Sequence record: NC_048170.1
Length of the DNA stretch: 64,000 bases
Direction: 5' to 3' (one strand)
DNA from: Escherichia phage vB_EcoM_Goslar
Shown: one piece after another, positions 1,905 to 49,189 of the stretch
How the letters are laid out: each line of letters starts with the position of its first letter
Position numbering within the stretch: position 1 is the first letter of the stretch
Program-made: the position numbers and the translations under genes
The notes under the pieces: generated by a model
Told to the model about the DNA's origin: nothing
What the model saw: only the letters and a program-made list of their open reading frames with translations
Database searches by the model: none

Positions 1905-4814
1905 ATGAACGATATAAATAAAGGGCGCGTCGCCCTCGAACGTCAAATGAGCAATAATGACGTTGCGAAGGCACTCATGAACAAATTTGTCGCTCCTGCT
2001 CCGCAGTCACGTCTTTATAACACACGTGATGCGGAAGGAGCGAACGGTCGTTTCGGGTTAGTTGTTCCCGACCAAATGACGATGAACACGGTTACGCGTG
2101 CGACCGCGACAAACATCGAGGATAATAAAAACATCCTCGAGTTGTTCCCTGAACTTAAACGCGTGATGCAGATCTATGTTGCCGCGTTGACGAACCCTAA
2201 CGATCTTAAGACGGTCGAGATGTTTATCGACAGCGAAGATTTCCCCGGCAGAGTCGCAGAAATCGTTCAGCCGATGATCGATACCATCGACACGCATTTT
2301 AAGAATATCTATAAAATAAAGACGCTTATCCCTCGTATCATCGAAGACGTCTTCTTTATCAAGGGCAGTTATAACTTCGTTGTTCTGCCAGAAAGCACGC
2401 TCGACCGCGCCATTAATGGTAACGGTCAACTGAAACTTGAAGAATACGGTTTTAAAGACAACCATTTTGCAAGCTGGGGACTTTTAGGTAACGACAGTCG
2501 CAAACGCCACGAAAATCAATTACCTGCGACGGTTTCGATGGAAGATTATTTCTCAGGCGTTAATGAAACCATACCGTACGATCCTGTTGTTCGCATAGAC
2601 AGCATTAAATTTACCAATACCCTGCTTCGTGATAAGGACGGTAAATTCATTGAAGCGAAGATCGATATTCCGGATATGGTTACGGTTGTCGATAACCCGG
2701 ATATCCTCCGCATGCCTATTCTGCATCAACGTCGAGCAGCGACAGCAGTGCAGCGTGCGTTACGTGCAAACACGTTAGGAGGTAGTGGTTTGGTAACGCT
2801 GTCAGGTGATCCGACCCTAACCGCTAACCGACGTGAGCTGACGCAAGAGCAGGTTAACGAGATCTGGAATAAACTCAACATCCAGCGTCACACCAAGGTA
2901 TCTCCCGTTTACGCGTTGGCAACCCCAGATACACTCGATCGTCAAAGCGTCGGTCATCCTGGTGTGATGCACGTACCACCTGAGGCATTAGAACCTGTAC
3001 ATGCGCCGGGTGATCCGGAGAACCATATCGGATATTTGGTTCAGTTGGATGAGTTTGGTTATCCGGTGCGTTTGGTTGAAGATGCTGCGTATTACAAGCA
3101 GTTGGAAGGTCGGTTGTCGAAGATCACTGCAGATATCGCGGGCACGTCAAGCAACGGCATGGCGAGCGAGATGATTGGTGCAGCCAAGAACATGATCCAA
3201 GGTACGTCATGTAATCAGGTAGACATGTCGGCCTTCGTATCGTCGTACGAATCGCTGATGCAACGTTACATTGTCGAACGTATCGTTAACGGTTATCTTG
3301 GCAGTGCGGTGGAGATCGGTGCGACATCATCGTTTTATCTGTCGATGCTTGCCCGTAGCCTCGCTCACAAGCAGACCCGTGTTTTGTTTATTCCTCGAGA
3401 GATGGTGACTTACATCGCCTATGAATACAACAAATACGGTATCGGTCGTTCGCTGCTTGAAAGTACGAAGATGATCTCGTCGCAACGAGCCATGCTCATG
3501 GTTCAAGAACTGATGGCAAAAATCAAAAGTTCGTTGAACTATACGACGCTAAGCGTAATGCTTGAAGACACCGACAGAAACCCGGTCGATACCGTCGAAC
3601 AAGCACTGCATAGTTTCGCTCGTGTCTACCAGTCTGGTTTCCCGTTGGGTGAAACTAACCCGATGGATATCATCAACGCGTATGAACGAAGCTCGATTCG
3701 ATTGAAGGTTGAGGGGAATAACCCACGCTTCCCGAAATTGAATACAGACGTCAGTGTTGAGCAGCGTAACTATCAGTCTCCTGATAATGAGCTGATGGAT
3801 CGTTACCGTCGTGACCATTTCATGGGCTTGGGTGTGTCTCCGGAGATTATCGATACTTCCTACCAATCTGAATTCGCAGCTTCTGTGATTACAGCTAACG
3901 CGATGCAAGAGAAACAGTTCACGGTTTGTCGTGAGGTGATCACGAATGGATTATCGGACCACATCAAGAAATATACGGCATACAGTCCCGTGTTGTTGAC
4001 GTCGTTACGAAACACGGTTCGTGCGAACATGTCTAAGCTTTCCCAGGCACAATTGAAGCAGCTTTTTGGTAGCGATTTCGAAAACGGTGTTATCCGTAAC
4101 GTTAACGCCTATCAGGAGATTGACGACCAATCAGCAACAATGGATCTGGATTACACTAAACCAGAAGTCCAGGAAGTTATTGCCGATGCTTATGTGTCCA
4201 TGTTCTTAAACAGCCTGCGTGTGCGTTTACCGGATAGCAATGCTCGTCGCCTTGAAGATCAGGTACGTGAATATAATCAGTACAAGGAAGCGATTACTGC
4301 GCAACTTGATGATTATTTAACGCCTGATTACGTCATGGGTCTGGGTGGGGTTGATGAAACAACGCTGCAGATGATCCGCGCATGCATTATTGGTACCGCG
4401 ATGCGTACGTGGGCAAAAGAGAACAACTTCAATCAGGAGCTGGCTGATCTCTTCAGTCTTGACGATAAGAAGAATGCCGTGCAAGATTGGAAACGTATGT
4501 CCATGGAACATATTGAAGTCATGGGTAAATGCATGGGTGATTTTGCATTGTATATTCAGAATCTGACGAAGAAGATTGAAGAGAAGATGGGAGCTCAAGC
4601 ACAGGACGGTAGCGTTTCATCTGATGGTTCGTGGTCATCCGATTCAAGTAGCGATACCGGTTCTTCTGATGACTTCGGTGGCGGTGACGATTTCGGAGAT
4701 ACCGATTTCGATACCGAAACGATGGAGGAAACCTCAACAGAAGAAACAACCACATCTGAGGAAACGACTACCGACACAACGTCAGAAGACGACACTTCAG
4801 GTGGCGTTGTCTAA
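1905..4814 (+). CDS. large hypothetical virion-associated protein (969 aa) with Ser/Asp/Thr/Glu-rich C-terminal tail
   Basis: ORF track; ATG with AAGGAG 9 nt upstream; followed by hairpin 4846..4880; portal-like size but no motif support. Confidence 0.8.
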   Translation: MNDINKGRVALERQMSNNDVAKALMNKFVAPAPQSRLYNTRDAEGANGRFGLVVPDQMTMNTVTRATATNIEDNKNILELFPELKRVMQIYVAALTNPNDLKTVEMFIDSEDFPGRVAEIVQPMIDTIDTHFKNIYKIKTLIPRIIEDVFFIKGSYNFVVLPESTLDRAINGNGQLKLEEYGFKDNHFASWGLLGNDSRKRHENQLPATVSMEDYFSGVNETIPYDPVVRIDSIKFTNTLLRDKDGKFIEAKIDIPDMVTVVDNPDILRMPILHQRRAATAVQRALRANTLGGSGLVTLSGDPTLTANRRELTQEQVNEIWNKLNIQRHTKVSPVYALATPDTLDRQSVGHPGVMHVPPEALEPVHAPGDPENHIGYLVQLDEFGYPVRLVEDAAYYKQLEGRLSKITADIAGTSSNGMASEMIGAAKNMIQGTSCNQVDMSAFVSSYESLMQRYIVERIVNGYLGSAVEIGATSSFYLSMLARSLAHKQTRVLFIPREMVTYIAYEYNKYGIGRSLLESTKMISSQRAMLMVQELMAKIKSSLNYTTLSVMLEDTDRNPVDTVEQALHSFARVYQSGFPLGETNPMDIINAYERSSIRLKVEGNNPRFPKLNTDVSVEQRNYQSPDNELMDRYRRDHFMGLGVSPEIIDTSYQSEFAASVITANAMQEKQFTVCREVITNGLSDHIKKYTAYSPVLLTSLRNTVRANMSKLSQAQLKQLFGSDFENGVIRNVNAYQEIDDQSATMDLDYTKPEVQEVIADAYVSMFLNSLRVRLPDSNARRLEDQVREYNQYKEAITAQLDDYLTPDYVMGLGGVDETTLQMIRACIIGTAMRTWAKENNFNQELADLFSLDDKKNAVQDWKRMSMEHIEVMGKCMGDFALYIQNLTKKIEEKMGAQAQDGSVSSDGSWSSDSSSDTGSSDDFGGGDDFGDTDFDTETMEETSTEETTTSEETTTDTTSEDDTSGGVV

Positions 4815-4897: not shown

Positions 4898-5173
4898 TTA
4901 TTTCGAGGTTAACCACGATTCAATTGTGGTGAGTTTGCTTCTCAGTACGCGCCAACTAGGGTGTGGTGGGATCACAGCGCCATTGTCGATTACGGTTAGC
5001 TGAACCTGGTACTTCTGTTGCATACGTGCTACCGTGTCGCTTATCGAGAGGAAAAGCTGGTAACGTTCATATGCCGTCAGTTCACTGTCCTGTTGAACTG
5101 CGTTGGCTGCTAACGTAATTTCGCGTAAGTCCTTTGCATCCACAGAGACGGTAATGAGTTTATATTGACTCAT
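4898..5173 (-). CDS. hypothetical protein (91 aa)
   Basis: ORF track; ATG with AAGGAAAC upstream. Confidence 0.55.
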   Translation of the reverse strand: MSQYKLITVSVDAKDLREITLAANAVQQDSELTAYERYQLFLSISDTVARMQQKYQVQLTVIDNGAVIPPHPSWRVLRSKLTTIESWLTSK

Positions 5174-5234: not shown

Positions 5235-7793
5235 TTACTGCTCTTCACGTTCCAGCAGATACTCGGAAGCGGTAATACCGTTTACCGTACGTACTGCTTT
5301 CAGACGAGTATCATCACTCAGAATCACGGTAACAGATTGCAGACCTTTTACTTTGGTTTCGAAGGTCTTGAACACCTGATCCAGCATACGAGCAATGCTT
5401 GGGTTGGTTGCAGCCGATGCGTGGGTGTAACCGCTTTGGTTCAGCTTCAGAATCTTGGCGTTGGTCGGTACGCGAACAACAACATGCGGACGCATCGCGA
5501 ATACGCTGTGATTGAACCAGTAAGCGTCGTTACTATCTTCGTCGGTAACGATGTCTGGATTAACACGCATATCCTCGACAGCCGCATCCGCCAAACGACG
5601 TTCGATTTCATCGGCGTCCAGAGAGCCATCTTTCTCCAGTTCTGCACGATACTCACTCATGGCAACCAGATGACGTTCACGATTCGCTGCGGATTTTTCG
5701 TGAGCGGCTTTCAGGTAGTCATGCATGTTGTACAGTTCTGCCATGGAAAGACGAATGTTCCACTGACCTTCGCCATCGCGATTGCAGTAGAGACACTTCA
5801 GCATGTTGACCCAGGTATAGTAGCAATTGGCGAATTCATCTTCAATGAACTTCTGGTCCATTTTAAGATCGTGAATCAGCCAACCGGACAGTTCTCCGAT
5901 ATCATCAACGAAGCTAGAGATGGTGGTTTCAGAGAAGTTCTTCGGTACGATACGTTTGATCAGCTTATTGACGTCTTTGGTCATGCTATCGTTCAGGAAA
6001 TGCCAGATACGCAGAGGAATGACATCTCGATACTGTTGCATGATCTGACGATAAGCTTTGATATCGTCGCTACGACCTTTATCAATAGACAACGCATCCA
6101 GGAATTCATGGATTGCATCCAGCTCTTTGTCGGTATAGGTTCCCAGATAGGAATTGACGGTGGCCAGGAATGCTAATGCGTCGTTTTGGTTGACGTCGGT
6201 GTTGGTCTGCTGAATGATCGCCACTGCAGCTTTAGTTTCAGCATCCTCAACGCTTGACGCTGCGATCGCGTCGGTGACGGTAAACAGTTTCATTTCGCGC
6301 TGCTCACCGACAACGATTGGCTCACGCTGAACCGGCTTGTTAAGACTAACGCGAACAACTTCTGCTTGCGCGATACGATCCAGTTTTGCCATTTCCTGCT
6401 CTGCCATACGACGAGCGGTTGGATCTGATTCAAGTTCGATGTATTCCACTTCTTCCTCCGTGAGGGATGTAATGTCAACAATGGTTTCATGAAGAATTCC
6501 GTTTTCGTCGATACGTGCTCGACGAGCGAAGTGCCTGAAGTCATACAACGTCGGCCAACGACTATTAGGTGCAAAGTCTTTGGCTTTCAGACGCATCTGC
6601 ATAAATTCTTCATGTTGAACAACACGACCGTAACGCTTAGCATCTTCGGTCGCATCAATTGGATTAACGGTCTTTGTTGCCGTAGCGGAACGAGCCGTAC
6701 GAACCGGTTCCGGTTTCACCTGCGCCGGTTCAGGTTGAACGGGTTTCTGCTGTCCAGCCTTAACATGCCATTCTGGCTCTTCGTACTGTTCAGCAAATTG
6801 CTCAGCCGCTGCAAAGATATCGTTGATACCACCAATATCTCCTTCAGGATTTGTCGAGTAAATCCGTGGTTGCGGTGCCTCGTAACGCGGCGCTGTAGCA
6901 GCAGGTGCCTCATCAACGATAGGATCATCATCACCGACATCATACAAACGGTTGAACGCACAATCCTTCGAATCAATGTACGATGGTGTTTGTGGTTGGA
7001 CAACCGTAGGCCGAGGTTGTGTGCCGTATCCTGGTGTTGTTGGAGCCATACCACGCATAACTGCTGGGTTAGGTTGGTATTGTGGTTGTGGGTAGGTTCC
7101 ACCATACATGGCGTACGCAGGCTGTTGTGGTTGACCATACCCGTTGCTAACCATCGCACTTGCTTGCGGCCCACGATAAGTCATCCCCATCTGCATCACC
7201 TGCTGCTTCAAACCACGTGACTTCTGCGCGATTTGCGCTAGGCTTCCGCTTTTATTCAGCTGCGTGTACTTATTCGCGGCTTCCGGGTTAATGCGTGATA
7301 ATTCAATCGCGCGATAATATTCCGGGTACTGATTCGGTTCAAAGAGCCACGTTACAAGATGATACAGCGCAACTGTACTCACGGCAGCAGAGACGATCTG
7401 GTCGTCGGACGCGTTCTGTGGCATCGGGTTGATGTAAGAGAACACGTTCCAACAACAGTCTTCAACAAGCGATTCCATCATCATATCGTTATTGGTATAA
7501 CGTGCGACGAACTCGGTTTGTATTTTGTCTTGCTGAGCGAAGTCTTTCAGGACATTAAAGATGGCTTGACGGATTTTGACGATCGTCGCTTCTTGGGTGA
7601 TGAAGTTATAGTTCTGCTGATATGAGGGTTGTTGGTATTGTGGTGGTTGATAGGCGTTATTCGGGTATGCGCCGTACGGCGATTGCTGATACTGTTGCTG
7701 ACGAACCTGTTCAGCCGCATAATTAATCGTGCTCGTATAAGGGTTTTCGCTATAGCCCATTTGTTGATACATGTTGTTACTGCCATTATACAT
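5235..7793 (-). CDS. hypothetical protein (852 aa) with Q/Y/P-rich low-complexity N-terminus
   Basis: ORF track; ATG with AAAGGA upstream; N-terminal about 60 aa dominated by Q, Y, P, N; second QPQY-rich stretch mid-protein. Confidence 0.8.
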   Translation of the reverse strand: MYNGSNNMYQQMGYSENPYTSTINYAAEQVRQQQYQQSPYGAYPNNAYQPPQYQQPSYQQNYNFITQEATIVKIRQAIFNVLKDFAQQDKIQTEFVARYTNNDMMMESLVEDCCWNVFSYINPMPQNASDDQIVSAAVSTVALYHLVTWLFEPNQYPEYYRAIELSRINPEAANKYTQLNKSGSLAQIAQKSRGLKQQVMQMGMTYRGPQASAMVSNGYGQPQQPAYAMYGGTYPQPQYQPNPAVMRGMAPTTPGYGTQPRPTVVQPQTPSYIDSKDCAFNRLYDVGDDDPIVDEAPAATAPRYEAPQPRIYSTNPEGDIGGINDIFAAAEQFAEQYEEPEWHVKAGQQKPVQPEPAQVKPEPVRTARSATATKTVNPIDATEDAKRYGRVVQHEEFMQMRLKAKDFAPNSRWPTLYDFRHFARRARIDENGILHETIVDITSLTEEEVEYIELESDPTARRMAEQEMAKLDRIAQAEVVRVSLNKPVQREPIVVGEQREMKLFTVTDAIAASSVEDAETKAAVAIIQQTNTDVNQNDALAFLATVNSYLGTYTDKELDAIHEFLDALSIDKGRSDDIKAYRQIMQQYRDVIPLRIWHFLNDSMTKDVNKLIKRIVPKNFSETTISSFVDDIGELSGWLIHDLKMDQKFIEDEFANCYYTWVNMLKCLYCNRDGEGQWNIRLSMAELYNMHDYLKAAHEKSAANRERHLVAMSEYRAELEKDGSLDADEIERRLADAAVEDMRVNPDIVTDEDSNDAYWFNHSVFAMRPHVVVRVPTNAKILKLNQSGYTHASAATNPSIARMLDQVFKTFETKVKGLQSVTVILSDDTRLKAVRTVNGITASEYLLEREEQ

Positions 7794-7827
7794 TTCTTAC
7801 GATCCTTTTTATTTATTCGGTTATGTG

Positions 7828-9624
7828 TCAATCGATTATGTCGCGATCGTTAATTTCTACAATTTCTTCATCGAATCGACCGACGTCTTTCTTCAAGCCT
7901 GCATTGGTTGCTGCAACGTCATTTGCAATTTGTGGGGTAATGATTAACCGACCGCGCTCATCGATAGGTGCGTACATACTGAACTTCTGACGTCCGGTTG
8001 GTTCGGAGTGTGGAAGATTCAGATAGCTTGCACAGAACGGGATGGAACCACTAACCAAACGACTCTCGTCAGCCAATGCAGCACCGCCTGCGTTTTGGCT
8101 CTGGAGAACAACATGCGTGCTCACTTTGAACAGCATGCAATCACCAGGTGACTGAATCGATGTTGCCACTTTCTCACGTTTATCACGATTGCTCTGGATA
8201 TTGAGAATCGCTTCCGTTGCAACTTGATTTCGCAACGCCTTCTGTACATCGCGATTGGTCATCTCTTTACGGTTGTTCTGTCGTTTACCACGTTCTGTGG
8301 TTTTAAGATGGAACCCCAGTTTAAAGATGCTCTTACGCACATCCTCCATGACATATTCCAACACCATCAATTCCTTACCGAACATCGTCGTGGTATCAAC
8401 ACGACTCATTTCGATAGTGACATTGTCAATCAGATACGCCATAAATTCGTAGAAGTCGTCGCAAGGAATATTTTCCTGTTTGAACTTCTTCTGTTGAATC
8501 TCGTCAACGTAAAGATCGAGACTGTCGATGTGGTGGTTTACATCACGCAACAAACGCGCATCCGCATTGTTGTTATTAAAGATAATCAAACCGAGTAATG
8601 TACGCCAATGGTCTGGCGCATTCGCGAACTCCTCAACCGGATAGTCTTCCGGAAAACGATCGTAATAACGGTCGATGAGATACAAGAATGCACCGACAAG
8701 GCCAAGAACAATACGTTCCGTGCCTCCACGTCTTACAGCAATTTGAATATCAGGATGTTTGTAACGTACAGCGCTAGCGCTACGGCTTTTACCGCTTTTG
8801 CTGATACTAAAGCCTTTAGGAATAACCCCCATGGTGCGATAGATTACCCATTGGTCACGCGGAAAATCACGTTCAGCAAGGTTCCGTCCGGTTACGGCTT
8901 CGACACCTGCAAAACGTCGGAAACACTCACCCACCCCGTACTTCGCAAAGAGATAGTGACCCAGTGTGGTTACGCTGGTGTGGTTGATGTTGTCACCGTT
9001 CACTTTACTTTGTTTAGTAAGATGATAGATTTGCGACCAGGGTAATGACAGGTAATGACGATAATCGATACCGGTCGGTGTATCATTGCTCAGGAACTGA
9101 TACGGTGTACGTTTAACCGTGATTTTGTCACGCGGAAGCATGATGAACGCCATGTCTTTCGTGTAACTGATTACGGGGTCAGCGAGTACCGCACTGAGAA
9201 TGAAGTTCGCACCACGTAGACGCATTTTACCACCCTGACCTACCGCGGGCAATAGGAGAGGATGTCGGATAATGCAGTAGTCCTTTCCTGGTTCACGACG
9301 GTCACCTGATTCCATCGCGCCGTACCAGCGGAATTCCAGCATCACCATAAACACATCGGAAGGCGCAAGGTCGAAGGTCAGCTTACCGCTATCCTTCCCT
9401 TTGGTTTTCTTTCCTCCGCTTAAGTAGTGGAACTGTTCGCGGGCCATACAACGACGCAGGCCATGATACACCAGATCCTTAGGTAAACTATCTTTGCTGT
9501 TCCGCCAAAGACGATCAACATAGGACTCAACATCTTGCATCTTATCGACGACGATGTTGCGTGCTATCTTCTCGTTCATCTTCGGTGCAAGCTCAGCGAC
9601 AGCTTTGCAGAATCTAGGATCCAT
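7828..9624 (-). CDS. hypothetical protein (about 598 aa)
   Basis: ORF track frame; track start 9627 is GTG, adjacent ATG at 9624 has AAGGAG 6 nt upstream. Confidence 0.8.
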   Translation of the reverse strand: MDPRFCKAVAELAPKMNEKIARNIVVDKMQDVESYVDRLWRNSKDSLPKDLVYHGLRRCMAREQFHYLSGGKKTKGKDSGKLTFDLAPSDVFMVMLEFRWYGAMESGDRREPGKDYCIIRHPLLLPAVGQGGKMRLRGANFILSAVLADPVISYTKDMAFIMLPRDKITVKRTPYQFLSNDTPTGIDYRHYLSLPWSQIYHLTKQSKVNGDNINHTSVTTLGHYLFAKYGVGECFRRFAGVEAVTGRNLAERDFPRDQWVIYRTMGVIPKGFSISKSGKSRSASAVRYKHPDIQIAVRRGGTERIVLGLVGAFLYLIDRYYDRFPEDYPVEEFANAPDHWRTLLGLIIFNNNNADARLLRDVNHHIDSLDLYVDEIQQKKFKQENIPCDDFYEFMAYLIDNVTIEMSRVDTTTMFGKELMVLEYVMEDVRKSIFKLGFHLKTTERGKRQNNRKEMTNRDVQKALRNQVATEAILNIQSNRDKREKVATSIQSPGDCMLFKVSTHVVLQSQNAGGAALADESRLVSGSIPFCASYLNLPHSEPTGRQKFSMYAPIDERGRLIITPQIANDVAATNAGLKKDVGRFDEEIVEINDRDIID

Positions 9625-9663
9625 CACACACTCCTTTCAGAAAGTTGCTTAAGCAGATTAAAG

Positions 9664-11100
9664 TTACTTTTTCGATGACGCCTTCTCAAGAATCTTGAAA
9701 AAGGTCATACCTATACCGACAACAGCCGCGGTTATACTCGCAGCGGCTTTCCAAACATCGACGTTACGTTGACGTCGCGCTTCTTCCGCTTCACGTTGTC
9801 TTTTTGCCTCTTCATCACGTCGACGTATCTCAGCCGCAAACTCGTCATGCTTACGTTTGGCTTCTTCGTCTCGACGACGAAGTTCAGCGACGAATTCTTC
9901 ATGTTTGCGTTTAGCCTCGTCGTCACGACGTTTTAAATCAGCTTGATAATCTTCGTGTATTTGTCTACGTAGATCATCTTGACGTTTCATTTCGGCTTGG
10001 TGTTGTTCCATCCTACGTTTTTGTTCGTCTTTAAGCTGATCGAGTTCGGCTTTATGTTGTTCATCACGCAGCTTTGCGTCGGCGCGATGCGCCTCATGCA
10101 TCTGTGCGATAACTGCCTTGTGTTCATCCGCCATACGTCGCATTTCAGCCATCACCCCTTTAAGGGTTTCTTCTGATGCCTTACGTTCGTAGCTACGTTG
10201 GTCGAAATCATTTTTGTAGGCTTCTTTTTGGATGGGGTCGCGCCAATGCAATGCCGATTCACGCGTCGGAAAAACATTGTACTTCCACATCTCTTTTTCC
10301 AAATCTTCGACCGGTACGAAGACGGAGTCATTATTCCCGAAGGTAACCAACATACCTGGCGCGCCTGCTCCATTCGTTGGTTTTATTTCGAACGCTTTCC
10401 CCAACACGTTAACCCATAAGCTATACGGATTATGAAAGTCGGGCGGCGTCCAATGGATAGTGAGTTGCGTTCCGAGAATCCGGAAACCCTCTGTTTTTCC
10501 CGTCAAGCTCCGCGCGCACGTTGCGATGTAGGGGTGATCAATCCCTTTCGTAACGTGGTCTGCGCTTTTGTATTCTCCTTTAACTTTTACGATTGCCACG
10601 TTGATTTGCGCGACATAAGCGGGTTGATTAAAGTTCAACGTGTTGAGGTCAATTTGACATATTTCATCCAGCGTATCGTACCAGTCTTGCTGGTCTAATA
10701 GACGCGGCATTTTCTCTGTGTTAACAATACGACGGATATGCGGTTTCCTTATCGCGTAACCTGTGCCGTTTTTAACACGGAGTATATCCCGACGTCTACC
10801 CGCGTAGACGAAGTTTCTGAATGCACCATTCGCATTAGATACGTCATGGCTGTCAACTATTACAGGACTACGAAATTTTGAACGTCGTACGATCCTGAAT
10901 GTATTGCCGTCCTCAACCCTACCAGGAATGTACTGGAACATATTGTCGGAGGTGATAACCAACACGGTATGGCCAGATTCATTAATACATGCCCATCCTA
11001 ATTCCAGGTCATATAACGGTTCAGCATAACCGTCAATGCGATATGCGTGCGTACCATCCCACGGTTCGAACGCAGTATCACATATTGGCATGGAGGGCAT
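9664..11100 (-). CDS. hypothetical protein with charged tandem-repeat helix and C-terminal transmembrane anchor
   Basis: ORF track frame; track start is TTG, ATG at 11100 has GGAGG 6 nt upstream; three 18-aa repeats (RRRDEEAKRKH-EF-AE); hydrophobic segment AAASITAAVVGIGMTFF then KK at C-terminus. Confidence 0.8.
   Translation of the reverse strand: MPSMPICDTAFEPWDGTHAYRIDGYAEPLYDLELGWACINESGHTVLVITSDNMFQYIPGRVEDGNTFRIVRRSKFRSPVIVDSHDVSNANGAFRNFVYAGRRRDILRVKNGTGYAIRKPHIRRIVNTEKMPRLLDQQDWYDTLDEICQIDLNTLNFNQPAYVAQINVAIVKVKGEYKSADHVTKGIDHPYIATCARSLTGKTEGFRILGTQLTIHWTPPDFHNPYSLWVNVLGKAFEIKPTNGAGAPGMLVTFGNNDSVFVPVEDLEKEMWKYNVFPTRESALHWRDPIQKEAYKNDFDQRSYERKASEETLKGVMAEMRRMADEHKAVIAQMHEAHRADAKLRDEQHKAELDQLKDEQKRRMEQHQAEMKRQDDLRRQIHEDYQADLKRRDDEAKRKHEEFVAELRRRDEEAKRKHDEFAAEIRRRDEEAKRQREAEEARRQRNVDVWKAAASITAAVVGIGMTFFKILEKASSKK
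9775..9936 (-). repeat. 3 x 54-nt in-frame tandem repeat encoding the charged 18-aa repeats
   Basis: Direct codon-by-codon reading of 9664..9940; repeat units 9775..9828, 9829..9882, 9883..9936. Confidence 0.8.
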
Positions 11101-11253
11101 CGTCAACCTCCATCAGATTGAAAACTATCACGCATAATACATTTCCCTTTTTCTTGTTCTTATCAAGCCGACAGCCGACGGTTTCAGCATCGTTCCTAGC
11201 GCGAGAACGACCTTACGTGTTGTCTATGCCTTATTCATCGCAGGCGTCTGTCA

Positions 11254-40030: not shown

Positions 40031-42823
40031 TTATCTTACGTTATTGCTATTCTGCTGTTCGCTGAACCAGCCATACACCTTGAGATCGGTACCGTATTTC
40101 AATGCGATATACGCATTCAGCGCAGCGCAGAACAAAGACGCGAATGCCCATATCAGCGAAGGATCGACGTCTTCCGTTACCACTGGGAGAGTATTATCCG
40201 GTTCCCATGATGGTGAACTGTCCATGAACGTCGCGTACCATCCCCGCCGTTGTTCTTCGGTGGTAAAGTCGCTATGGGGTTCCAATGCTTCTTTTGCCAG
40301 ACGTCGATATTCGAACATATGCGTTGCTAAAGCCGATGAGTTACCAGATTCGCCCTCATAGTTCGGATCCACCGCATAACAGAGTTCTGTTGAATCTAAC
40401 AAAGCAACCGCCTGTGTGATGCTGTCGGCAGTGCCTGCACCATAGAGCTCGATAGACCGCGAAAGCTTTTCACAGAACGCATTTAACGCGGAAGGATTGG
40501 ACACCTGAAGGTCAAGGCCTAATGTCCACGGATAGTTACTGAATACACCCGTAAACCGTGGCATAACACCCAACAGATGCTGTCCGATTACGGCACGGTT
40601 ATAAACAGCCCTGTTATAGACTTGAAGCGCGGCCTCCAGGGCTTGGTTATAATGACGACGAAGCTCGTCACGAGAGTTGCGGAACCTGTTTGCCGCAAGA
40701 CTTGTGGCTGCGACGCTACAAACATCGTAATTGGTGGACGAGAGCACAACCTCGTTAAGATCGAACGCTTCCTGTTTCAATGTTCCGCTAACAGCCGCTG
40801 CTTCGCTGTTCGCTTTATCGACAACTGTACTCAAAGCGTTAATATAACGTTTAGCTCGGACCTCCAACCATTGTGCGATACCGAGAATATCCACCGCAGC
40901 TTTAGCAAGATCACGTGCATTCACGATTTCGTTCTTCAATGCCCCTAAACCTTTATTTTCAGGCGATGAGGCTTGTTGACGAATCATGCTGTTCAACATG
41001 GTAAGCAGATTATCCAACTCATGTCCGCTGACCTTGTTACGTGCATCGGTAATCGGCCCTTGCAGGAATTTACGGCAACCGTCGTTGTATCGAATCAGTT
41101 TATCCACATCGATAGATTCGTTCGTGGATTCCTTGAACTGATCCTTCAATTCTTCACGGTAATCATGGATTTCACTTGCGAGATTATCGATAGTGATACC
41201 ATCATGTCCAAGAAGAACTTTATTGAAGTTACCTTTCTCGAATGCAAGAGTAAGACCTTCACGAATCTTAGCGAGTTTGTCCTGATCAAGTTCACGACCG
41301 TTCGATAGCTCTTTCACTTCCGAGCTGATTAATGCCGAAACGTTACCCAGATTGTCGGTAACCCCTTTGAACGCTCCCGACCAGATCGTTCCTGCTTCAG
41401 CATATTTCGCAATGGTCTGAATACCGACGGTATGTAACGATGCTAAGCGTTTCTTCGTGCCTTCGGTAAGCAGTGCGTCTTTAGCTCGCGTAAGCTGACT
41501 GTTATTAGCTTCCGCCTGCTGAATCGCTGCTTTCGCACTTCCATTACGCCAGCTCTTAACCAGCCAATCAACCAAACGTTTTAGGATATTGACGGTGTAT
41601 TCCATTGTCCGCCGTAACGTTTCCCACGCGCTTTCTGCGGTATAGATGCCGTACCCTTCCATCTTCGTTGGGTCAAAGAAACCTTCCTGCACGAGATCGG
41701 TACGTGTGTAGCCATCAGCAGCTTCTACTTCCGCCTGGGTTTTATCCCAGAAGTCGTCGCTCTTTGCAGCAATCGCTGTATCTTTAACGTCCAGGATGAT
41801 CTGACCAACCGTTTGTGCAAACAGCAAGGCTGCACGTACCGATTGTGCGAACATCCGCTGATATTTGATTCGAACGCATTGCATCTGGGTTAGCAGATTC
41901 AGTTGTGCGATCCCATCCAAGGTGCTATCCTGAGCAAGTCCTTCGGCTTTAGCGATAACCTGTTTTACACGTTCAGCGACATCACCGTACTGCTGGCAAA
42001 CATCCCGCAGAATACGTGCCGCGAAGACCCCGGTACCGATATAGTTCAATAGGTCTTTTAACGACCATTCGGTCGGACAATCGGTCGGCGCAATAGGGAG
42101 TAAGCAACCATCACCGTCCATGAATCTCTCTAATGCGCTAATATCCTGATTTTCTACGCTCATGGGGATATCGACATCAGCCGCTTGCAGATCCAGCATC
42201 TGTTGTAGGATGTTGGTATCGGCTTGTACAAGCGTCGCAAGCGCTTGGCTGTGTGCGATTATTGGTAACGCAGGTGACCATACTGCAGCAAGCTTGTCGG
42301 CGTGACGTTGAATGGCATACCCCATATCCTCGATCACATCGGGATGCTCGATAACCCCCTGAAGCGTTTGATGTAGCTCACCGAGTTGCTGAGACAGATC
42401 GACCATCATGGTGTTGAAGGTTTCGTCATCCTCTTTGTGGTTGTCCAGACGCTCGAGTTCATGTCGAAGCAATGTAACGAGCTGTCCGTTGCCTTCTTGC
42501 TTCAGCTTGCTTTCCATTAACGTAATGGCTTTATCGACGATCTGACACGCTTCACGAAAACCGGTTGTGGAAGGAAGCTCTGTCCATAACGCCAGCGGTT
42601 TACCGTCAAGGGCTTCCGGCATCGATAACGAAAGCATAGACAGTTGTTGACGTGATACTTGCTGTTCACGGTGTAATGTTTCTTTTAACGCCAGGAGATC
42701 GTCAAGAAACGCGCCGTTAAGGGTGGTCGTACGTGGTGTTGAATTAATACCGTCAGTTAACGATTCAAGCACCAGGAGACCGTTATCAGCTGAAGAGAGT
42801 CCCGCGGCAAGATATTTGTTCAT
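40031..42823 (-). CDS. large hypothetical virion protein (930 aa)
   Basis: ORF track; ATG with GGAG 7 nt upstream; internal LVQEGFF motif; hydrophobic C-terminal segment. Confidence 0.85.
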   Translation of the reverse strand: MNKYLAAGLSSADNGLLVLESLTDGINSTPRTTTLNGAFLDDLLALKETLHREQQVSRQQLSMLSLSMPEALDGKPLALWTELPSTTGFREACQIVDKAITLMESKLKQEGNGQLVTLLRHELERLDNHKEDDETFNTMMVDLSQQLGELHQTLQGVIEHPDVIEDMGYAIQRHADKLAAVWSPALPIIAHSQALATLVQADTNILQQMLDLQAADVDIPMSVENQDISALERFMDGDGCLLPIAPTDCPTEWSLKDLLNYIGTGVFAARILRDVCQQYGDVAERVKQVIAKAEGLAQDSTLDGIAQLNLLTQMQCVRIKYQRMFAQSVRAALLFAQTVGQIILDVKDTAIAAKSDDFWDKTQAEVEAADGYTRTDLVQEGFFDPTKMEGYGIYTAESAWETLRRTMEYTVNILKRLVDWLVKSWRNGSAKAAIQQAEANNSQLTRAKDALLTEGTKKRLASLHTVGIQTIAKYAEAGTIWSGAFKGVTDNLGNVSALISSEVKELSNGRELDQDKLAKIREGLTLAFEKGNFNKVLLGHDGITIDNLASEIHDYREELKDQFKESTNESIDVDKLIRYNDGCRKFLQGPITDARNKVSGHELDNLLTMLNSMIRQQASSPENKGLGALKNEIVNARDLAKAAVDILGIAQWLEVRAKRYINALSTVVDKANSEAAAVSGTLKQEAFDLNEVVLSSTNYDVCSVAATSLAANRFRNSRDELRRHYNQALEAALQVYNRAVYNRAVIGQHLLGVMPRFTGVFSNYPWTLGLDLQVSNPSALNAFCEKLSRSIELYGAGTADSITQAVALLDSTELCYAVDPNYEGESGNSSALATHMFEYRRLAKEALEPHSDFTTEEQRRGWYATFMDSSPSWEPDNTLPVVTEDVDPSLIWAFASLFCAALNAYIALKYGTDLKVYGWFSEQQNSNNVR

Positions 42824-42882: not shown

Positions 42883-45687
42883 TTAAGCTAATTTACCGAA
42901 ACCGGCTTTCTGCAGTTTCTCGTTGATGATTTTCGCTTCAGCGAAGACGTAATCGCGGTAGGCGGTCACTAACGCATCCACACGTGAACGCAAGGCTTCT
43001 TCGAAGCTATACCACGCAGCGATTTCACGAATCTGTGCGTTGATATAATCAACGGTTGAGCGAAGCTCGGTTGCGTTTTCCTGCGGGATGGCTTTCACCT
43101 GGCGAGCAACGTCATTTAAACGACGGAACTGTGTTTCGATTTCTTTAAACTTATTGTCGGCAAGTTTGCTGAATTCGTCACCAGAACGGGTAAATAACAG
43201 ATAGCTGTTGCCATCAAGTGCGGTCGCTAACTGCTGAAGTACGTTGGTGTCCGGATACACAGGAGTACCGCTTTGCAGTACCTTCTCACCGAATTCCGCG
43301 AAGTCCTTCGGTGGTAAGTGCGCAGACGTTGTCAACTCGTTGAAACGGAAAGTCAGCGAACTATCATACAACATCCGGTACGCTTCCATACCCTGCTTCA
43401 TGGTGCCAGCCAGGTTGGCCAGACGCGGAGCAATCTCACCCTCTTTAGCGCGTTTCTGGTCTTCTAACGCCCCTTCGAGTTCTTTACACTGGTCGTTCAG
43501 ATACACGATACGATCGGGACGCAGACGACGCATCTCACGAAGAATGGTATCCAGCTTACCTTCCTGGAAATAACCTAGCGTTAAAGACGTACACGCTTGC
43601 TGAAGACGATCGAACACCGGTAAGGTTACCATCTCCTTACGGATACCATCAACAATCGCAGAAACAGCCGAAAGTTTCTGTTCTGTCGTTAATGGAACAT
43701 CAGAGACCGACTTGCTGGGCGCACCAACAACGTTACGCATTGCGTCGGTATCCTCGGTTTTATCAACCTCTTTACGAACATGCTCATCAGGAACATAAAC
43801 GTTCGCATTACGTTTCGCCTGCTTGATGGCATCGTTGGCCGCTTTTTCGGTGGCTGCTACGCTATCGGCACGTTTCTTCAAGAGTTCAATAATCCAGAGC
43901 ACCAGACGACGAATCGCAGTATAGGCCGTCGTGATGATGACACCGATAACAGCCATCTTCATGATACCGAACGATTCCATGGTCGGCTCTAATGCCTGGT
44001 CTGGCATATAGCGTTCACGCAGCTCCAGATAGATCTGCTCATCCGGTTTGCTGATCTCGCCACGATGCGAAGTCCGATAGATGGCTTCGTCAATCTCAAC
44101 AAGATCTTTGCGTGCCTGACGGTCTGTTTCGGTCAAATAAGCGCAGCCGGATACGTCGTCTTCAAAACTTTCGAACTTAAAGAAATCGACAACCATCTTG
44201 GCAAGCGCCTCTTTCTTAGCAGGATCGAGTGTCTTCGCATCTTCTTTTTGCTTATCCATTTTTTCCTTGAATTTCTCTTTGTAGTCATTCAAGGGTTTTA
44301 CCGCTCTTGCTTTCAACGCGTTATAGATAGCTTTCCACTCATCGTTACGTTCGAGGACAATGAAATGGTTTTTGAGTTCGAAAGCGCGATAGCGTGCAAC
44401 GAGCTGTTCTACCTGAATATGAGCGAGTTGGATATCCATTAACCAACGCGACATCGCCGAGATCAAACGGCTATAAGCGAACAACGTTTGGTAGGTTAAC
44501 TTCATGTATGTTTCATACAGCTCAATATCGCCGCTCTGAATATTGGCTGTTGGATTCATTTCCTTTGTTGCCTTGAAGACCTGTTCTGCTTCTCTCAGCG
44601 TCTTTTCGAACTTAACGTCATTAAACGCAGTGAATGGTTCAGCCAACTCATGCATTTTATCGTGGAGTTCGCGGATCCAAGCTTCCTTGCTGTCGCGGAT
44701 GGTGTTTTCATCATGGAGCACGGTTTGATGTTTTCGTACCCATTCTTCCACGATATCAGCAGCGGAAACAATCGGAACGCGATCTGAAATGAGCGGGACG
44801 ATCGTGTGAAGCGCCCCGACACATTCTGGCGTGTCCCAGTGTTTCTGGAGTTCATCACGGAAACGGTTAATGTTTTCTAAGGTGGTACCTAAATCAAGGA
44901 AAGTGCCGCCATTATGACTCATCTGTGCAACCAGATCGGCAAATACCTTTTGTTTTTCGATGACAAAAGGAACCATCCGCATAAGCCATTCAGCAGTTGC
45001 TTTAGCCTTTTCTTTCAGGTTCTTATCGGCGATTTCTTTAAGGTTAATCGCGCTACCGTATCCTGCAAGTTCGTTGTAGACGTCGTTAACCGTCATCTCT
45101 TTATCCAACATTTCTTTGAAACGTGGATAATCTGCACCTAACGCGTCGATGACTTCTTGGATGATGTCGTCTGTGGTAGCGATAAATTTATTTGTGCCGC
45201 CGTAATGGTTCCAGATTTTCTGTAGCGTCTTCTTAAAGAATTCGAAGACGAATGTCCAGATACGCTTAATGAGTTCCCAGACTTTCTTCGCACCATCGAC
45301 AAACAGTTTAGAGACTTTGGCAACGAATCCTTCCTGCACCAACTCAACGCCGTTACGTGATGGAATTTCGGTGAAGAAAGCATCTGGCAGTTGTTTCGGG
45401 AACGCGTCACCAAGACGCATACGCAATTCGGGTACATCGGCACGAGAAATACCGCGCGTCGTTAACTGCTCGTGAAGACGAACGTTTTCTTCACCAGAGG
45501 CTACGAATTCGTTAACGTCAAATGACACCAGTTCTTGATCTTCGGTGGTGACGACGCTTGAACCATCACTGGTTTGGATGTCTTCGTCAGGGAATGCCAT
45601 GAGCATACCGTGACGCATTTCAACCACTCCGTAATCGGTTGCTAAACCGAATTCGTTGTGATCGGGGGTAATAACTGGGATACTCAT
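42883..45687 (-). CDS. large virion protein (934 aa) carrying the paralog-family N-terminal motif
   Basis: ORF track; ATG; VELVQEGFVAKVSKLFVDGAKKVWELIKRIW aligns with VVEGFKDTVVKAMKKIWDII of gene 30350..31666. Confidence 0.85.
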   Translation of the reverse strand: MSIPVITPDHNEFGLATDYGVVEMRHGMLMAFPDEDIQTSDGSSVVTTEDQELVSFDVNEFVASGEENVRLHEQLTTRGISRADVPELRMRLGDAFPKQLPDAFFTEIPSRNGVELVQEGFVAKVSKLFVDGAKKVWELIKRIWTFVFEFFKKTLQKIWNHYGGTNKFIATTDDIIQEVIDALGADYPRFKEMLDKEMTVNDVYNELAGYGSAINLKEIADKNLKEKAKATAEWLMRMVPFVIEKQKVFADLVAQMSHNGGTFLDLGTTLENINRFRDELQKHWDTPECVGALHTIVPLISDRVPIVSAADIVEEWVRKHQTVLHDENTIRDSKEAWIRELHDKMHELAEPFTAFNDVKFEKTLREAEQVFKATKEMNPTANIQSGDIELYETYMKLTYQTLFAYSRLISAMSRWLMDIQLAHIQVEQLVARYRAFELKNHFIVLERNDEWKAIYNALKARAVKPLNDYKEKFKEKMDKQKEDAKTLDPAKKEALAKMVVDFFKFESFEDDVSGCAYLTETDRQARKDLVEIDEAIYRTSHRGEISKPDEQIYLELRERYMPDQALEPTMESFGIMKMAVIGVIITTAYTAIRRLVLWIIELLKKRADSVAATEKAANDAIKQAKRNANVYVPDEHVRKEVDKTEDTDAMRNVVGAPSKSVSDVPLTTEQKLSAVSAIVDGIRKEMVTLPVFDRLQQACTSLTLGYFQEGKLDTILREMRRLRPDRIVYLNDQCKELEGALEDQKRAKEGEIAPRLANLAGTMKQGMEAYRMLYDSSLTFRFNELTTSAHLPPKDFAEFGEKVLQSGTPVYPDTNVLQQLATALDGNSYLLFTRSGDEFSKLADNKFKEIETQFRRLNDVARQVKAIPQENATELRSTVDYINAQIREIAAWYSFEEALRSRVDALVTAYRDYVFAEAKIINEKLQKAGFGKLA

Positions 45688-47689: not shown

Positions 47690-49189
47690 ATGAGCGAACA
47701 AGAACGAAAACCTAAGAAGAAACTGCTCGGTATTCAATGTCGACACATCAGCTATAACGAAGCGAACGATGGCAGCAAGAACGACCTCATGATCGCAAAA
47801 GAGATCATGTTCTTTGATGATAATACGCAAGCGACGAACCTTCGCTTCTTTGAGAATTACAAACGTCCGTTTTGGGTGACAGTAGAGAGTAAACGTAAGA
47901 ACAAATATAAAAAGGAAAGCGAGAAGCTGTCACATGTGCGACGCTACGATGTCCGTCAAAGTGAACTGGTTGAAAAGATCAGTTCGGTGCTTTATAAAAG
48001 ACGTGCCGATGATAACACCCGTTTACAGCAGCTTGCACGGAGTCCATACCTCTATGGAACGGACGTTAGCGCCAGCTGTTATTTAAAAACCCAATACAAT
48101 ACAAAATGGCCGGAATACGTCGATAAATTACCCGCTTCTATCGCCTGTTTCGATATCGAAACTGACGTTGTCCATGGACACGGTAAGATCGTCTGTATGT
48201 CTATTACAATGGGATACAATGCGATACTTTGCTATACCAAGGACTTCGTTGGTCATATTCCGAATGCGATTGAGAAAACTCATGAGAAGATTCGATATTA
48301 TCTGGCCGAACGTCTGAATACCAAAGAAGATCCTCACGCGTTCGAAAAATATCATTACGATGTGCGAATCGTAGAAAGTCCGGCACAAGCGGTCATCCAA
48401 TGCATGCAAAAGGTTCACGAATGGCAGCCGGATTATCTCCTCGGCTGGAATATCGCGTTCGATATTCCGCGCATGCTCCAGGCACTGAACGAGGAAGGGT
48501 ATCGTCCCGAGGATGTTTTCTCCGATCCTCGTGTACCACCTAAATATCGTATTGCTCGCTGGGTACCACCGAAGACCGACAAGGTATCTGCTTCAGGTCG
48601 TAAAACCAACCTTACCCTCGAGCAGACCTGGCCGATGTTTTATACGATGGCTACGTATCAGGTTATGGATGCGATGTGTGGCTATAAGTTCGTTCGTTTA
48701 GGAAGACCGGATGAAGGACGCTATTCACTCGATGCGGTATTAGAGCGAAATAAATGCCATACGAAATTAAAAGCGATTCCTGGTACAGAAGGGTTCACGG
48801 AGCTTGCGTGGCACGAAGAAATGCAAACGAACCATCAAATCGACTACGGCGTATATAACCTTTGGGATAACCAAGGCATCGAGGCGTTGGACCAGAAAAC
48901 AAAAGACTATTCGATGACCATCCCTATCCGTTTAGCGGCGTCGGATTTGAAAGATTTCAGTTCTAACCCTAAACGTATCTGCGATAAACTTTTCTTCGTT
49001 TATCTTAACCGTGGGGAAGTCATGGGATGCACCGCCGACGACATGACCCAGGAAGAAGATAAGTGGGTTATCTCACGAACCGGACATATCGTCACATTAC
49101 CATGCGATCTCATGGCGGACAACGGCATTCATCTCTTCTGGGATATGCCTAATTTAAGGAGCTATATTCGATTATTTGTTGCGGATTAA
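47690..49189 (+). CDS. DEDD-type 3'-5' exonuclease-like protein (499 aa); possible exonuclease part of a split family-B DNA polymerase; probable exon 1
   Basis: ORF track; motifs ACFDIETD, GWNIAFDIPRM, YGVYNLWD in canonical Exo I/II/III order; no polymerase motifs; followed by HNH ORF and intron-like core. Confidence 0.65.
   Translation: MSEQERKPKKKLLGIQCRHISYNEANDGSKNDLMIAKEIMFFDDNTQATNLRFFENYKRPFWVTVESKRKNKYKKESEKLSHVRRYDVRQSELVEKISSVLYKRRADDNTRLQQLARSPYLYGTDVSASCYLKTQYNTKWPEYVDKLPASIACFDIETDVVHGHGKIVCMSITMGYNAILCYTKDFVGHIPNAIEKTHEKIRYYLAERLNTKEDPHAFEKYHYDVRIVESPAQAVIQCMQKVHEWQPDYLLGWNIAFDIPRMLQALNEEGYRPEDVFSDPRVPPKYRIARWVPPKTDKVSASGRKTNLTLEQTWPMFYTMATYQVMDAMCGYKFVRLGRPDEGRYSLDAVLERNKCHTKLKAIPGTEGFTELAWHEEMQTNHQIDYGVYNLWDNQGIEALDQKTKDYSMTIPIRLAASDLKDFSSNPKRICDKLFFVYLNRGEVMGCTADDMTQEEDKWVISRTGHIVTLPCDLMADNGIHLFWDMPNLRSYIRLFVAD

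Follow-up and report, generated by a model that had tools for sequence, protein, structure and literature searches.

An 852-residue protein encoded within the window, by which we mean the whole 64,000-nucleotide stretch of DNA analyzed here, carries a glutamine- and tyrosine-rich N-terminus and a second low-complexity tract farther along the chain, raising the questions of what this protein is and what these segments do. The protein is not an orphan; our analyses identify it as an ortholog, though a highly divergent one, of phiKZ gp124 and Pa36 gp316 (JADA). We give an even chance to the fuller reading, in which a very divergent phiKZ-like (chimallivirus) jumbo phage from gut metagenomes encodes it as its JADA ortholog and the tail and linker act as sticker–spacer tethers. 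First described only in 2025–26, JADA is conserved among nucleus-forming jumbo phages and is abundant within minutes of infection. This chimallivirus protein forms a ring-shaped dimer and triggers Avs5 immunity, its foci at the early-infection (EPI) vesicle are infection-dependent, and Pa36 JADA is diffuse when produced on its own and a soluble dimer when purified (PMC12931631). Early, abundant expression, EPI-vesicle foci and Avs5 activation are known for Pa36 and phiKZ only (PMC12931631, PMC12571901). Depletion of PhiKZ124 with an antisense oligomer (ASO) strongly altered phage transcription at 30 min (PMC12571901); the label "essential" for PHIKZ124 corresponds to a "+" for one of two antisense oligomers in the screen table and should be read with care. 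The features of the locus are:

5235..7793, minus strand: whole coding sequence of the divergent JADA (phiKZ gp124 / Pa36 gp316) ortholog, ATG to stop, 852 aa plus stop
7828..9627, minus strand: context, non-virion RNA polymerase (nvRNAP) beta-like subunit, phiKZ gp123-like, directly upstream (phrog_2943, E = 7e-120)
7803..7807, minus strand: AAGGA, a Shine-Dalgarno-like motif 9 nt 5′ of the ATG at 7793
7605..7793, minus strand: N-terminal Q/Y/N/P-rich disordered tail, residues 1–63 (from composition, Tyr spacing, dN/dS and pLDDT)
7194..7604, minus strand: predicted helical N-domain, residues 64–200 (AF2 helices 56–201, pLDDT ~60–73)
6978..7193, minus strand: Q/P/G/Y-rich low-complexity part of the inter-domain linker, residues 201–272 (from composition, dN/dS and pLDDT)
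6639..6977, minus strand: rest of the linker, residues 273–385, P/A/E/D-rich and predicted mostly disordered (pLDDT 23–38)
5238..6638, minus strand: C-domain, residues 386–852, homologous to the ring-forming JADA C-domain (AF2 pLDDT ~70–85)
5514..5771, minus strand: clade-specific insertion of ~85 aa in the C-domain, residues ~675–760, with predicted long charged helices

The relationship to JADA lies beyond the reach of ordinary sequence comparison. Neither megablast nor tblastn matched the 852-residue protein to any of 50,697 phage records, phiKZ included, a search of PHROGs gave no match, and phmmer with this protein recovered none of the JADA-clade proteins. A Pfam match to Cas9_C_2 was sub-threshold (18.6 bits vs a cut-off of 27) and was dismissed as chance. 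Four relatives with 80–99% identity came from a full-length word-indexed search, in which low-complexity words caused saturation; an exhaustive phmmer scan of 1.84 billion representatives yielded one more at 35% identity, and a six-sequence profile search returned two proteins only. In the combined alignment, identity to the JADA clade is ~15%. The assignment rests instead on position downstream of the nvRNAP subunit, on a profile–profile match of the C-domain and on a match of the AF2 fold to 9RP3. With hhalign, the target clade matched the phiKZ clade at 97.8% (E = 8e-13), and the C-domains alone did so at 97.7% over 240 columns (E = 2e-12; reversed control, E = 0.42); the C-domain also matched a 24-sequence JADA profile (97.6%, E = 4e-12). 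A phmmer bridge leads directly from P0005, a protein encoded on a metagenome contig, to 201phi2-1 gp204 (E = 1e-3). An HMM of the target clade alone placed 9rp3_A at the collinear position among PDB entries, at a nonsignificant E = 0.54. When the AF2 model was compared with the PDB by Foldseek, 9RP3 was the sole significant match (9rp3_A, E = 5e-12; 9rp3_B, E = 5e-11; probability 1.00; next match, E = 0.64), with a TM score of 0.55–0.57 normalized to the target over ~455 columns. Because JADA-clade sequences were part of the AF2 alignment, the sequence and fold evidence are not independent, and pLDDT in the C-domain is only ~70–85. In BFVD there were 13 matches, all to uncharacterized proteins; of the six that bear names, five come from jumbo phages and one from an uncultured myovirus. 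The N-domains agree only in position and in their all-helical prediction (hhalign of target vs JADA, E = 0.18 and 0.45); those of Eowyn and of LucasX/RSF1 match the JADA N-domain (86.6% and 83.2%).

Genomic setting supplies the remaining line of evidence. The reading frame lies on the minus strand, its translation agrees with the residue strings quoted in the preliminary description, and its ATG is 34 nt from the end of the nvRNAP gene on the same strand. That nvRNAP subunit has tblastn matches in 233 chimallivirus records, every one at 30% identity or less. The order major capsid protein (MCP), gp122-like gene, nvRNAP subunit, JADA-position gene and then portal on the opposite strand was seen in all 13 annotated phages inspected (phiKZ, 201phi2-1, Eowyn, RSF1, FBKp24, LucasX, Moabite, Vibrio 2 TSL-2019, Aeromonas PS1, Simmy50, BONAISHI, JM-2012 and YC1), representing at least 10 genera, and on the P0005 metagenome contig; family membership of BONAISHI ORF116 could not be confirmed. 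Elsewhere in the window lie PhiKZ_MCP (E = 5e-218), a divergent DnaB helicase and phiKZ internal head proteins which, together with the nvRNAP beta-like subunit, bear out the earlier assumption of a jumbo phage. The suggestion that the protein might simply be a structural component of the virion is probably wrong, and we dropped it because neighboring genes are annotated as virion proteins whereas phiKZ gp124 and 201phi2-1 gp204 bear no such note.

In overall plan the target resembles JADA: both lie downstream of nvRNAP, on the same strand, in a chimallivirus genome, and both comprise an N-domain, a long disordered linker and a large C-domain, the last being homologous by profile–profile comparison and predicted fold. 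The target differs in having an extra 63-residue Tyr/Gln-rich N-terminal tail, a linker of ~185 aa rather than ~100 aa, and an insertion of ~85 residues in the C-domain, which is gapped in the alignment to phiKZ gp124, Eowyn and RSF1 and contains AF2 helices at 691–721 and 727–744. In the AF2 model, a disordered tail of 63 residues precedes a helical N-domain, which a disordered linker joins to a C-domain bearing the JADA ring-dimer fold. A model built from a seven-sequence alignment was unusable (mean pLDDT 39), and the one used here drew on an alignment including JADA-clade sequences. Its pLDDT values are 24–31 at residues 1–54, 23–38 at 207–417 and 23–27 in the 201–272 tract; the helical region at 56–201 is thus followed by a stretch below 40 and then by a folded domain from ~420 to 852, with one short predicted helix in the linker at 324–336. 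The linker and N-terminal part of the ortholog likewise lacked cryo-EM density (PMC12931631).

The low-complexity segments themselves are far outside the composition of the other 48 proteins of the window. Q+N+Y peaks at 55% in the best 60-aa window of the 852-residue protein, vs a maximum of 32% in the other 48 reading frames (mean 12.7%, sd 4.6%; 15,651 60-aa windows). The tail contains 12 Tyr, 14 Gln, 9 Asn and 6 Pro, and its Q+Y+P+N content is 65% against a background of 17% (binomial p = 4e-17), while charged residues, of which there are only three, make up 5% (fraction 0.048) against 25% and hydrophobic residues 8% against 30%. Counted as Q/N/Y/P/G/S, the tail reaches 78% and residues 201–272 reach 64% against 28% (p = 2e-10), with a charged fraction of 0.042 in the latter; the Q/Y/P/N-rich N-terminus and second internal stretch first noticed in the sequence are therefore real. 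Tandem Repeats Finder found no DNA repeats beneath these regions, and codon use is mixed (CAA 8, CAG 6, TAT 9, TAC 3), so that the bias is a compositional feature at the protein level and not a slippage array.

The two segments differ in how widely they are conserved. All 25 JADA-clade proteins, and the majority of positional orthologs, have a tract equivalent to 201–272; the tail is kept only in relatives at least 80% identical, being absent from the 35%-identical sister clade and from phiKZ. The internal tract is the disordered inter-domain linker of the JADA family, and the N-terminal tail is an addition specific to the sub-clade of the target; its absence from the sister clade indicates that the tail is dispensable for core JADA function. 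The concern that the low complexity might not be conserved in homologs hence applies to the tail outside its closest relatives and not to the internal tract. The alternative of a flexible linker, also raised at the outset, is essentially right for the internal tract. Linker chemistry varies by genus, with RGG/GY in LucasX and Moabite, R/D in RSF1 and FBKp24 and Q/N/G in the phiKZ clade, although position and a length of ~50–185 aa are retained. A model in which any disordered spacer will serve also explains this genus-to-genus change. Within the target clade, dN/dS is 0.08–0.17 for the tail and 0.08–0.25 for the Q/P/Y tract (dS 0.3–1.4), values similar to that of the folded N-domain; indels are in-frame and composition is preserved. 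Both segments are under purifying selection.

Spacing of the tyrosines, tested with segment boundaries picked by the analyst, adds a further property. In the tail, where 19% of residues (12 of 63) are Tyr, the variance of the gaps is 4.1 vs 16.6 in shuffles (p = 0.003), and spacing is also more even than chance in P0004, a variant 11 aa longer (p = 0.002). It was not significant in the internal tract alone (p = 0.29); across eight ortholog segments, Fisher's combined p is 2e-4. The tail has the polar, uncharged spacers and few hydrophobics of the FUS/hnRNPA1 type and shares with such low-complexity domains Q/N/S/G/P spacers, a Tyr every ~5 residues, almost no charge and aromatics more evenly placed than chance. 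The prion-like domains of FUS and hnRNPA1 span ~135–165 residues. The target segments are much shorter (63 and 72 residues), contain more Pro and less Gly/Ser, and have no RNA-binding domain identified adjacent to them. A bacterial counterpart is the disordered linker of Escherichia coli SSB, which is reported to support SSB condensates: it too is Q/P/G-rich, includes "GQPQQP" as the target does, and connects an oligomeric, folded core with a further functional element, although its compositional match is weaker (Jensen–Shannon divergence 0.25–0.28) and it has few aromatics. Within the phage family, the nucleus-associated RNA-binding protein ChmC (NAR 2024, in the reference list of PMC11849849) is also a conserved non-virion chimallivirus protein, unrelated to the target in sequence and genome position. 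It is reported to form condensates with RNA in vitro, which would be a precedent for condensate-type behavior.

By their residue patterns, then, the tail and linker look like condensate-forming domains, and we favor a multivalent sticker–spacer tether over a passive linker. If the protein is dimeric like JADA, it would present ~40 Tyr per dimer (20 per subunit, from the tail and Q/P/Y tract) with no net charge barrier. Such flexible tethers could make many weak contacts, with one another or with partners such as RNA and the transcription machinery, and these might cluster the protein at the early-infection vesicle once infection provides a nucleating surface. The compartment involved would then be this vesicle, where JADA foci form, rather than the replication or assembly compartments first proposed. 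Counted in favor of a role beyond that of a spacer are the low dN/dS, the even Tyr spacing and the occurrence of condensate-type chemistries at the same position in orthologs, together with the EPI-vesicle foci (PMC12931631) and the change in transcription upon PhiKZ124 depletion (PMC12571901). The diffuse distribution and solubility of Pa36 JADA (PMC12931631) imply that the linker of the ortholog does not drive condensation by itself; Pa36 JADA, unlike the target, has no Tyr-rich tail.

A possible, if doubtful, alternative is that the segments are passive entropic tethers, needing only length, solubility and lack of fold to leave the N-domain mobile with respect to the C-domain ring, with no specific role for their Q/Y/P make-up. 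Flexible Q/P-rich linkers occur widely in bacterial proteins. The replacement of one chemistry by a wholly different one between genera (Q/Y/P, Q/N/G, RGG or R/D) with position and length kept speaks for such a tether, as do the diffuse distribution of JADA produced alone and its solubility as a purified dimer (PMC12931631). However, the 63-residue tail joins nothing, its dN/dS is as low as that of the folded N-domain, and its Tyr content and even spacing survive an 11-residue indel, whereas the composition of a neutral spacer would be expected to diverge between relatives at 80% identity. It is a good deal less probable that the low complexity is incidental and that short linear motifs in the tail or linker dock one defined partner, candidates being nvRNAP, a component of the EPI vesicle or a host protein. 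The target and P0004, which are 80% identical, are near-invariant at residues 9–37 (YQQMGYSENPY.ST...AA.QVRQQQYQQ), with indels confined to residues 38–60, and AF2 places a low-confidence helix at residues 20–35; against this, no such motif is common to the sister clade or phiKZ. That phiKZ gp124 came down when host DnaX or FtsZ complexes were affinity-purified (Van den Bossche 2014, cited by PMC11849849) would fit a host partner, but as relayed there this AP-MS link is unvalidated and only weakly suggests that gp124 binds DnaX or FtsZ.

A true self-templating prion, in which the Q/N/Y-rich tail would form an amyloid aggregate that switches protein activity, is unlikely, and we give it very little credence. 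Among the references compared, the tail is closest in composition to the N-domain of yeast Sup35 (Jensen–Shannon divergence 0.13), followed by the FUS PLD (0.16), and it shares "YQQ"-type motifs with Sup35; unlike Sup35, it has no oligopeptide repeats at the DNA level. The Michelitsch–Weissman criterion calls for at least 30 Q+N per 80-residue window. The target reaches just 26, in the window starting at residue 1, although P0004 reaches 30, Eowyn 33 and Aeromonas PS1 34. The label "prion-like" given in the preliminary description therefore holds for Q/N/Y-rich composition and falls short on the yeast-prion count, making it borderline. The tail is, moreover, ~10% proline with evenly spaced aromatics, features that favor dynamic assemblies over amyloid. 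A lytic cycle of well under 1 h (phiKZ time points 10–30 min; PMC12571901) offers no heritable state to exploit, and the ortholog behaves well in solution as a dimer (PMC12931631). Least credible of all is an annotation artifact, in which a start farther downstream (Met codons occur at residues 8 and 12) would leave the Q/Y-rich stretch untranslated: AAGGA at its distance of 9 nt favors M1 as the start and hence the tail as part of the protein, the intergenic gap is merely 34 nt, the next Met after residue 12 is residue 103, within the N-domain, and the low tail dN/dS with strictly in-frame indels indicates that the region is read as protein.

Collectively, these analyses bring into the JADA family a gut-metagenome clade whose divergence puts it beyond ordinary sequence searches, and identify a clade with an additional tyrosine-rich tail. 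They also show that the "disordered linker" of the family is not featureless: it is under purifying selection and displays, according to genus, three chemistries that are typical of proteins that form condensates or bind RNA. As an outside chance, JADA-family proteins might scaffold a condensate-like assembly on the early-infection vesicle, their disordered regions (Tyr/Gln-rich here, RGG or R/D in other genera) concentrating newly made nvRNAP and early transcripts. If true, this assembly would be the phage equivalent of the transcription condensates of eukaryotes, and the extra Tyr-rich tail of the gut-phage clade would strengthen it. The selected linker chemistries and the Tyr-rich tail thereby provide a concrete, testable handle on the role of JADA.

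The 852-aa protein encoded on the minus strand at 5235..7793 belongs to the JADA (phiKZ gp124) family, as a member of a very divergent clade. Direct searches with it returned nothing outside its immediate clade, and synteny gave the first lead to its identity. All 13 annotated phages inspected (at least 10 genera), and the contig of the metagenome relative P0005, share the gene order major capsid protein, gp122-like protein, nvRNAP subunit (phiKZ gp123), hypothetical protein (656-981 aa) and, on the opposite strand, portal; the target fills the slot of the hypothetical protein, which in phiKZ is occupied by gp124. A full-length alignment is collinear, with common motifs including TIxxFxxDIxEL and the C-terminal strand. 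Profile-profile comparison of the target and phiKZ clades gave 97.8% (E=8e-13), and the C-domains with linkers taken out gave 97.7% (E=2e-12; reversed control, E=0.42); homology between the N-domains was not detectable by this comparison. The AF2 C-domain (pLDDT ~70-85; 31-sequence alignment) significantly matched only two PDB chains, both of 9RP3 "Gp316/JADA" (E=5e-12; next match, E=0.64), with a TM of 0.55-0.57 normalised to the target, a fold match not fully independent of the sequence match because the AF2 alignment included JADA-clade sequences. BFVD returned 13 matches, all uncharacterized proteins, six of them named: five from jumbo phages, including the Vibrio positional ortholog, and one from an uncultured myovirus. 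The modeled domain architecture is a tail (residues 1-63), an N-domain (64-200), a linker (201-385) and a C-domain (386-852). In PhiPA3 (HQ630627 / NC_028999), the JADA ortholog matched as two pieces (annotated genes 140 and 141; hits H73 and H74), the gene being either split or mis-annotated.

Pa36 gp316 is the phiKZ gp124 ortholog; the JADA gene always lies downstream of an nvRNAP subunit gene, Pa36 JADA is diffuse before infection and afterwards forms foci at the early-infection (EPI) vesicle, and the JADA C-domain activates Avs5 (PMC12931631; preprint 10.1101/2025.07.08.663546). Depletion of PhiKZ124 strongly changes phage transcription at 30 min, the antisense screen scoring "+" for only one of two oligomers, and depletion of PhiKZ122 likewise disturbs phage transcription (PMC12571901). 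A 2026 review still calls JADA function unknown (PMC13282480). The make-up of the disordered parts goes undiscussed in these papers, in which a term search for condensates, prions and low complexity gave no match.

The preliminary description had assumed a jumbo phage, and the window bears this out, with PhiKZ_MCP (E=5e-218), a divergent DnaB helicase, phiKZ internal head proteins and an nvRNAP beta-like subunit. Among 233 phage records, none matches this subunit at more than 30% identity, which places the phage far from any isolate. Metagenome assemblies in ENA and IMG/VR contain near-identical contigs of ~238 kb, and a 10-kb contig bearing the same gene has the label "gut metagenome".

Genes of the window
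1905-4814 (+): portal-like gene, phrog_3004
4898-5173 (-): 91-aa ORF immediately downstream of the JADA gene
5235-7793 (-): JADA gene
9664-11106 (-): gp122-position gene, 480 aa
23117-26494 (-): 1125-aa ORF, no PHROG match at E<=1e-5
40031-42823 (-): 930-aa ORF, no PHROG match at E<=1e-5
42883-45687 (-): 934-aa ORF, no PHROG match at E<=1e-5
47690-49189 (+): DNA polymerase gene, phrog_3011, covering profile positions 5-494 of 576
49258-50469 (+): NUMOD1-domain protein, following the polymerase gene

The 91-aa ORF, which gave no family match except a sub-threshold Pfam hit, is called in the same position and with the same length in all close relatives (L018-L021); its counterpart beside P0005 (contig L005) is a 110-aa gene. 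The gp122-position protein ends in three charged repeats (RRRDEEAKRKH.EF), then a hydrophobic helix of transmembrane type (AAASITAAVVGIGMTFF) and, last, a basic tip; neither the repeats nor the helix occur in phiKZ gp122. Such a tail-anchored protein, encoded next to nvRNAP and JADA, could be connected with the membrane-bound early-infection vesicle. At its C-terminus, the portal-like protein has an acidic tail of ~70 residues rich in S/T/D/E (...SSDGSWSSDSSSDTGSSDDFGGGDDFGDTDFDTETMEETSTEETTTSEETTTDTTSEDD...), and the Moabite record ties its counterparts to phiKZ gp129 and T4 gp20. A homing endonuclease is one possibility for the NUMOD1-domain protein, its gene either neighboring the polymerase gene or interrupting it.

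The low-complexity composition claimed for the JADA protein is real, and the N-terminal and internal sequences read as first quoted. Q/Y/P/N make up 65% of residues 1-63, against a background of 17% (p=4e-17), and just three residues there are charged; Q/N/Y/P/G/S make up 64% of residues 201-272 (p=2e-10). Q+N+Y peaks at 55% in the best 60-aa window; windows from the other 48 ORFs all stay at or below 32%. No DNA tandem repeats were found under these segments, and their synonymous codons are mixed.

Conservation differs between the two segments. The JADA family linker begins with the internal tract, for which the flexible-linker alternative originally offered essentially holds. A Q/N/G/P-rich tract (aromatics, 8-10%) occurs at about residues 145-300 in 25 of 25 JADA-clade proteins. 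All relatives at 80-99% identity have the tail, with 11 additional residues in P0003, P0004 and L016, and it is absent from the sister clade at 35% identity (P0005, P0007), phiKZ, Eowyn and RSF1; Aeromonas PS1 and Vibrio 2 TSL-2019 also have N/Q/G-rich N-terminal tails. The 47-aa metagenomic product P0006 is truncated, sharing its first ~34 residues with the tail and diverging after ...QVRQQQ, which suggests a frameshift or assembly break within the low-complexity region in one sample.

Linker chemistry at the same place in other confirmed family members
Q/P/Y: Eowyn (180 aa, 28% Q), Simmy50
RGG/GY: LucasX (29% G), Moabite
R/D: RSF1, FBKp24

dN/dS by region, target versus relatives at dS 0.3-1.4
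N-terminal tail (1-63): 0.08-0.17
N-domain (64-200): 0.03-0.16
Q/P/Y tract (201-272): 0.08-0.25
C-domain (386-852): 0.03-0.09

By these ratios, the two disordered low-complexity segments are both under purifying selection. Indels among the relatives are all in-frame and composed of Q/P/Y/G. Spacing of the 12 tail tyrosines is far more even than in shuffles (p=0.003) and stays even in the longer variant, which has 14 tyrosines (p=0.002); gap variance falls below the shuffle mean in eight of eight independent ortholog segments (Fisher's p=2e-4). The gene is mosaic in L016 (3001-5589 of an IMG/VR contig) and P0003: because the C-domain protein is 100% identical to the target (dS 0.11) but identity drops to 76-77% across the tail and N-domain (dS 1.0-1.4), the comparison indicates recombination, with a breakpoint within the linker at about residues 273-385.

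The main rival to a sticker-spacer reading of these segments is a passive tether, which is favored by the variation in linker chemistry from genus to genus and by the solubility and diffuse distribution of Pa36 JADA expressed alone. Residues 9-37, which are nearly invariant, may hold a docking motif. That the tail is a true prion is unlikely. Of the reference sequences compared, Sup35-N and the prion-like domain of FUS come nearest in composition; the Q/N count of 26 per 80 residues is under the threshold of 30 per 80 for Q/N-rich prion-like domains. Misassignment of the start codon is very unlikely, with an AAGGA motif 9 nt upstream of the ATG and the end of the preceding gene 34 nt away.

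The JADA family and the presence of a disordered linker were already known. New here are the membership of this very divergent clade, its extra tyrosine-rich tail and C-domain insertion, and condensate-type linker chemistries under selection as a family-wide pattern. We suggest that the tail and Q/P/Y tract would act as multivalent sticker-spacer tethers, which may help the putative dimer gather at the early-infection vesicle or bring in partners.
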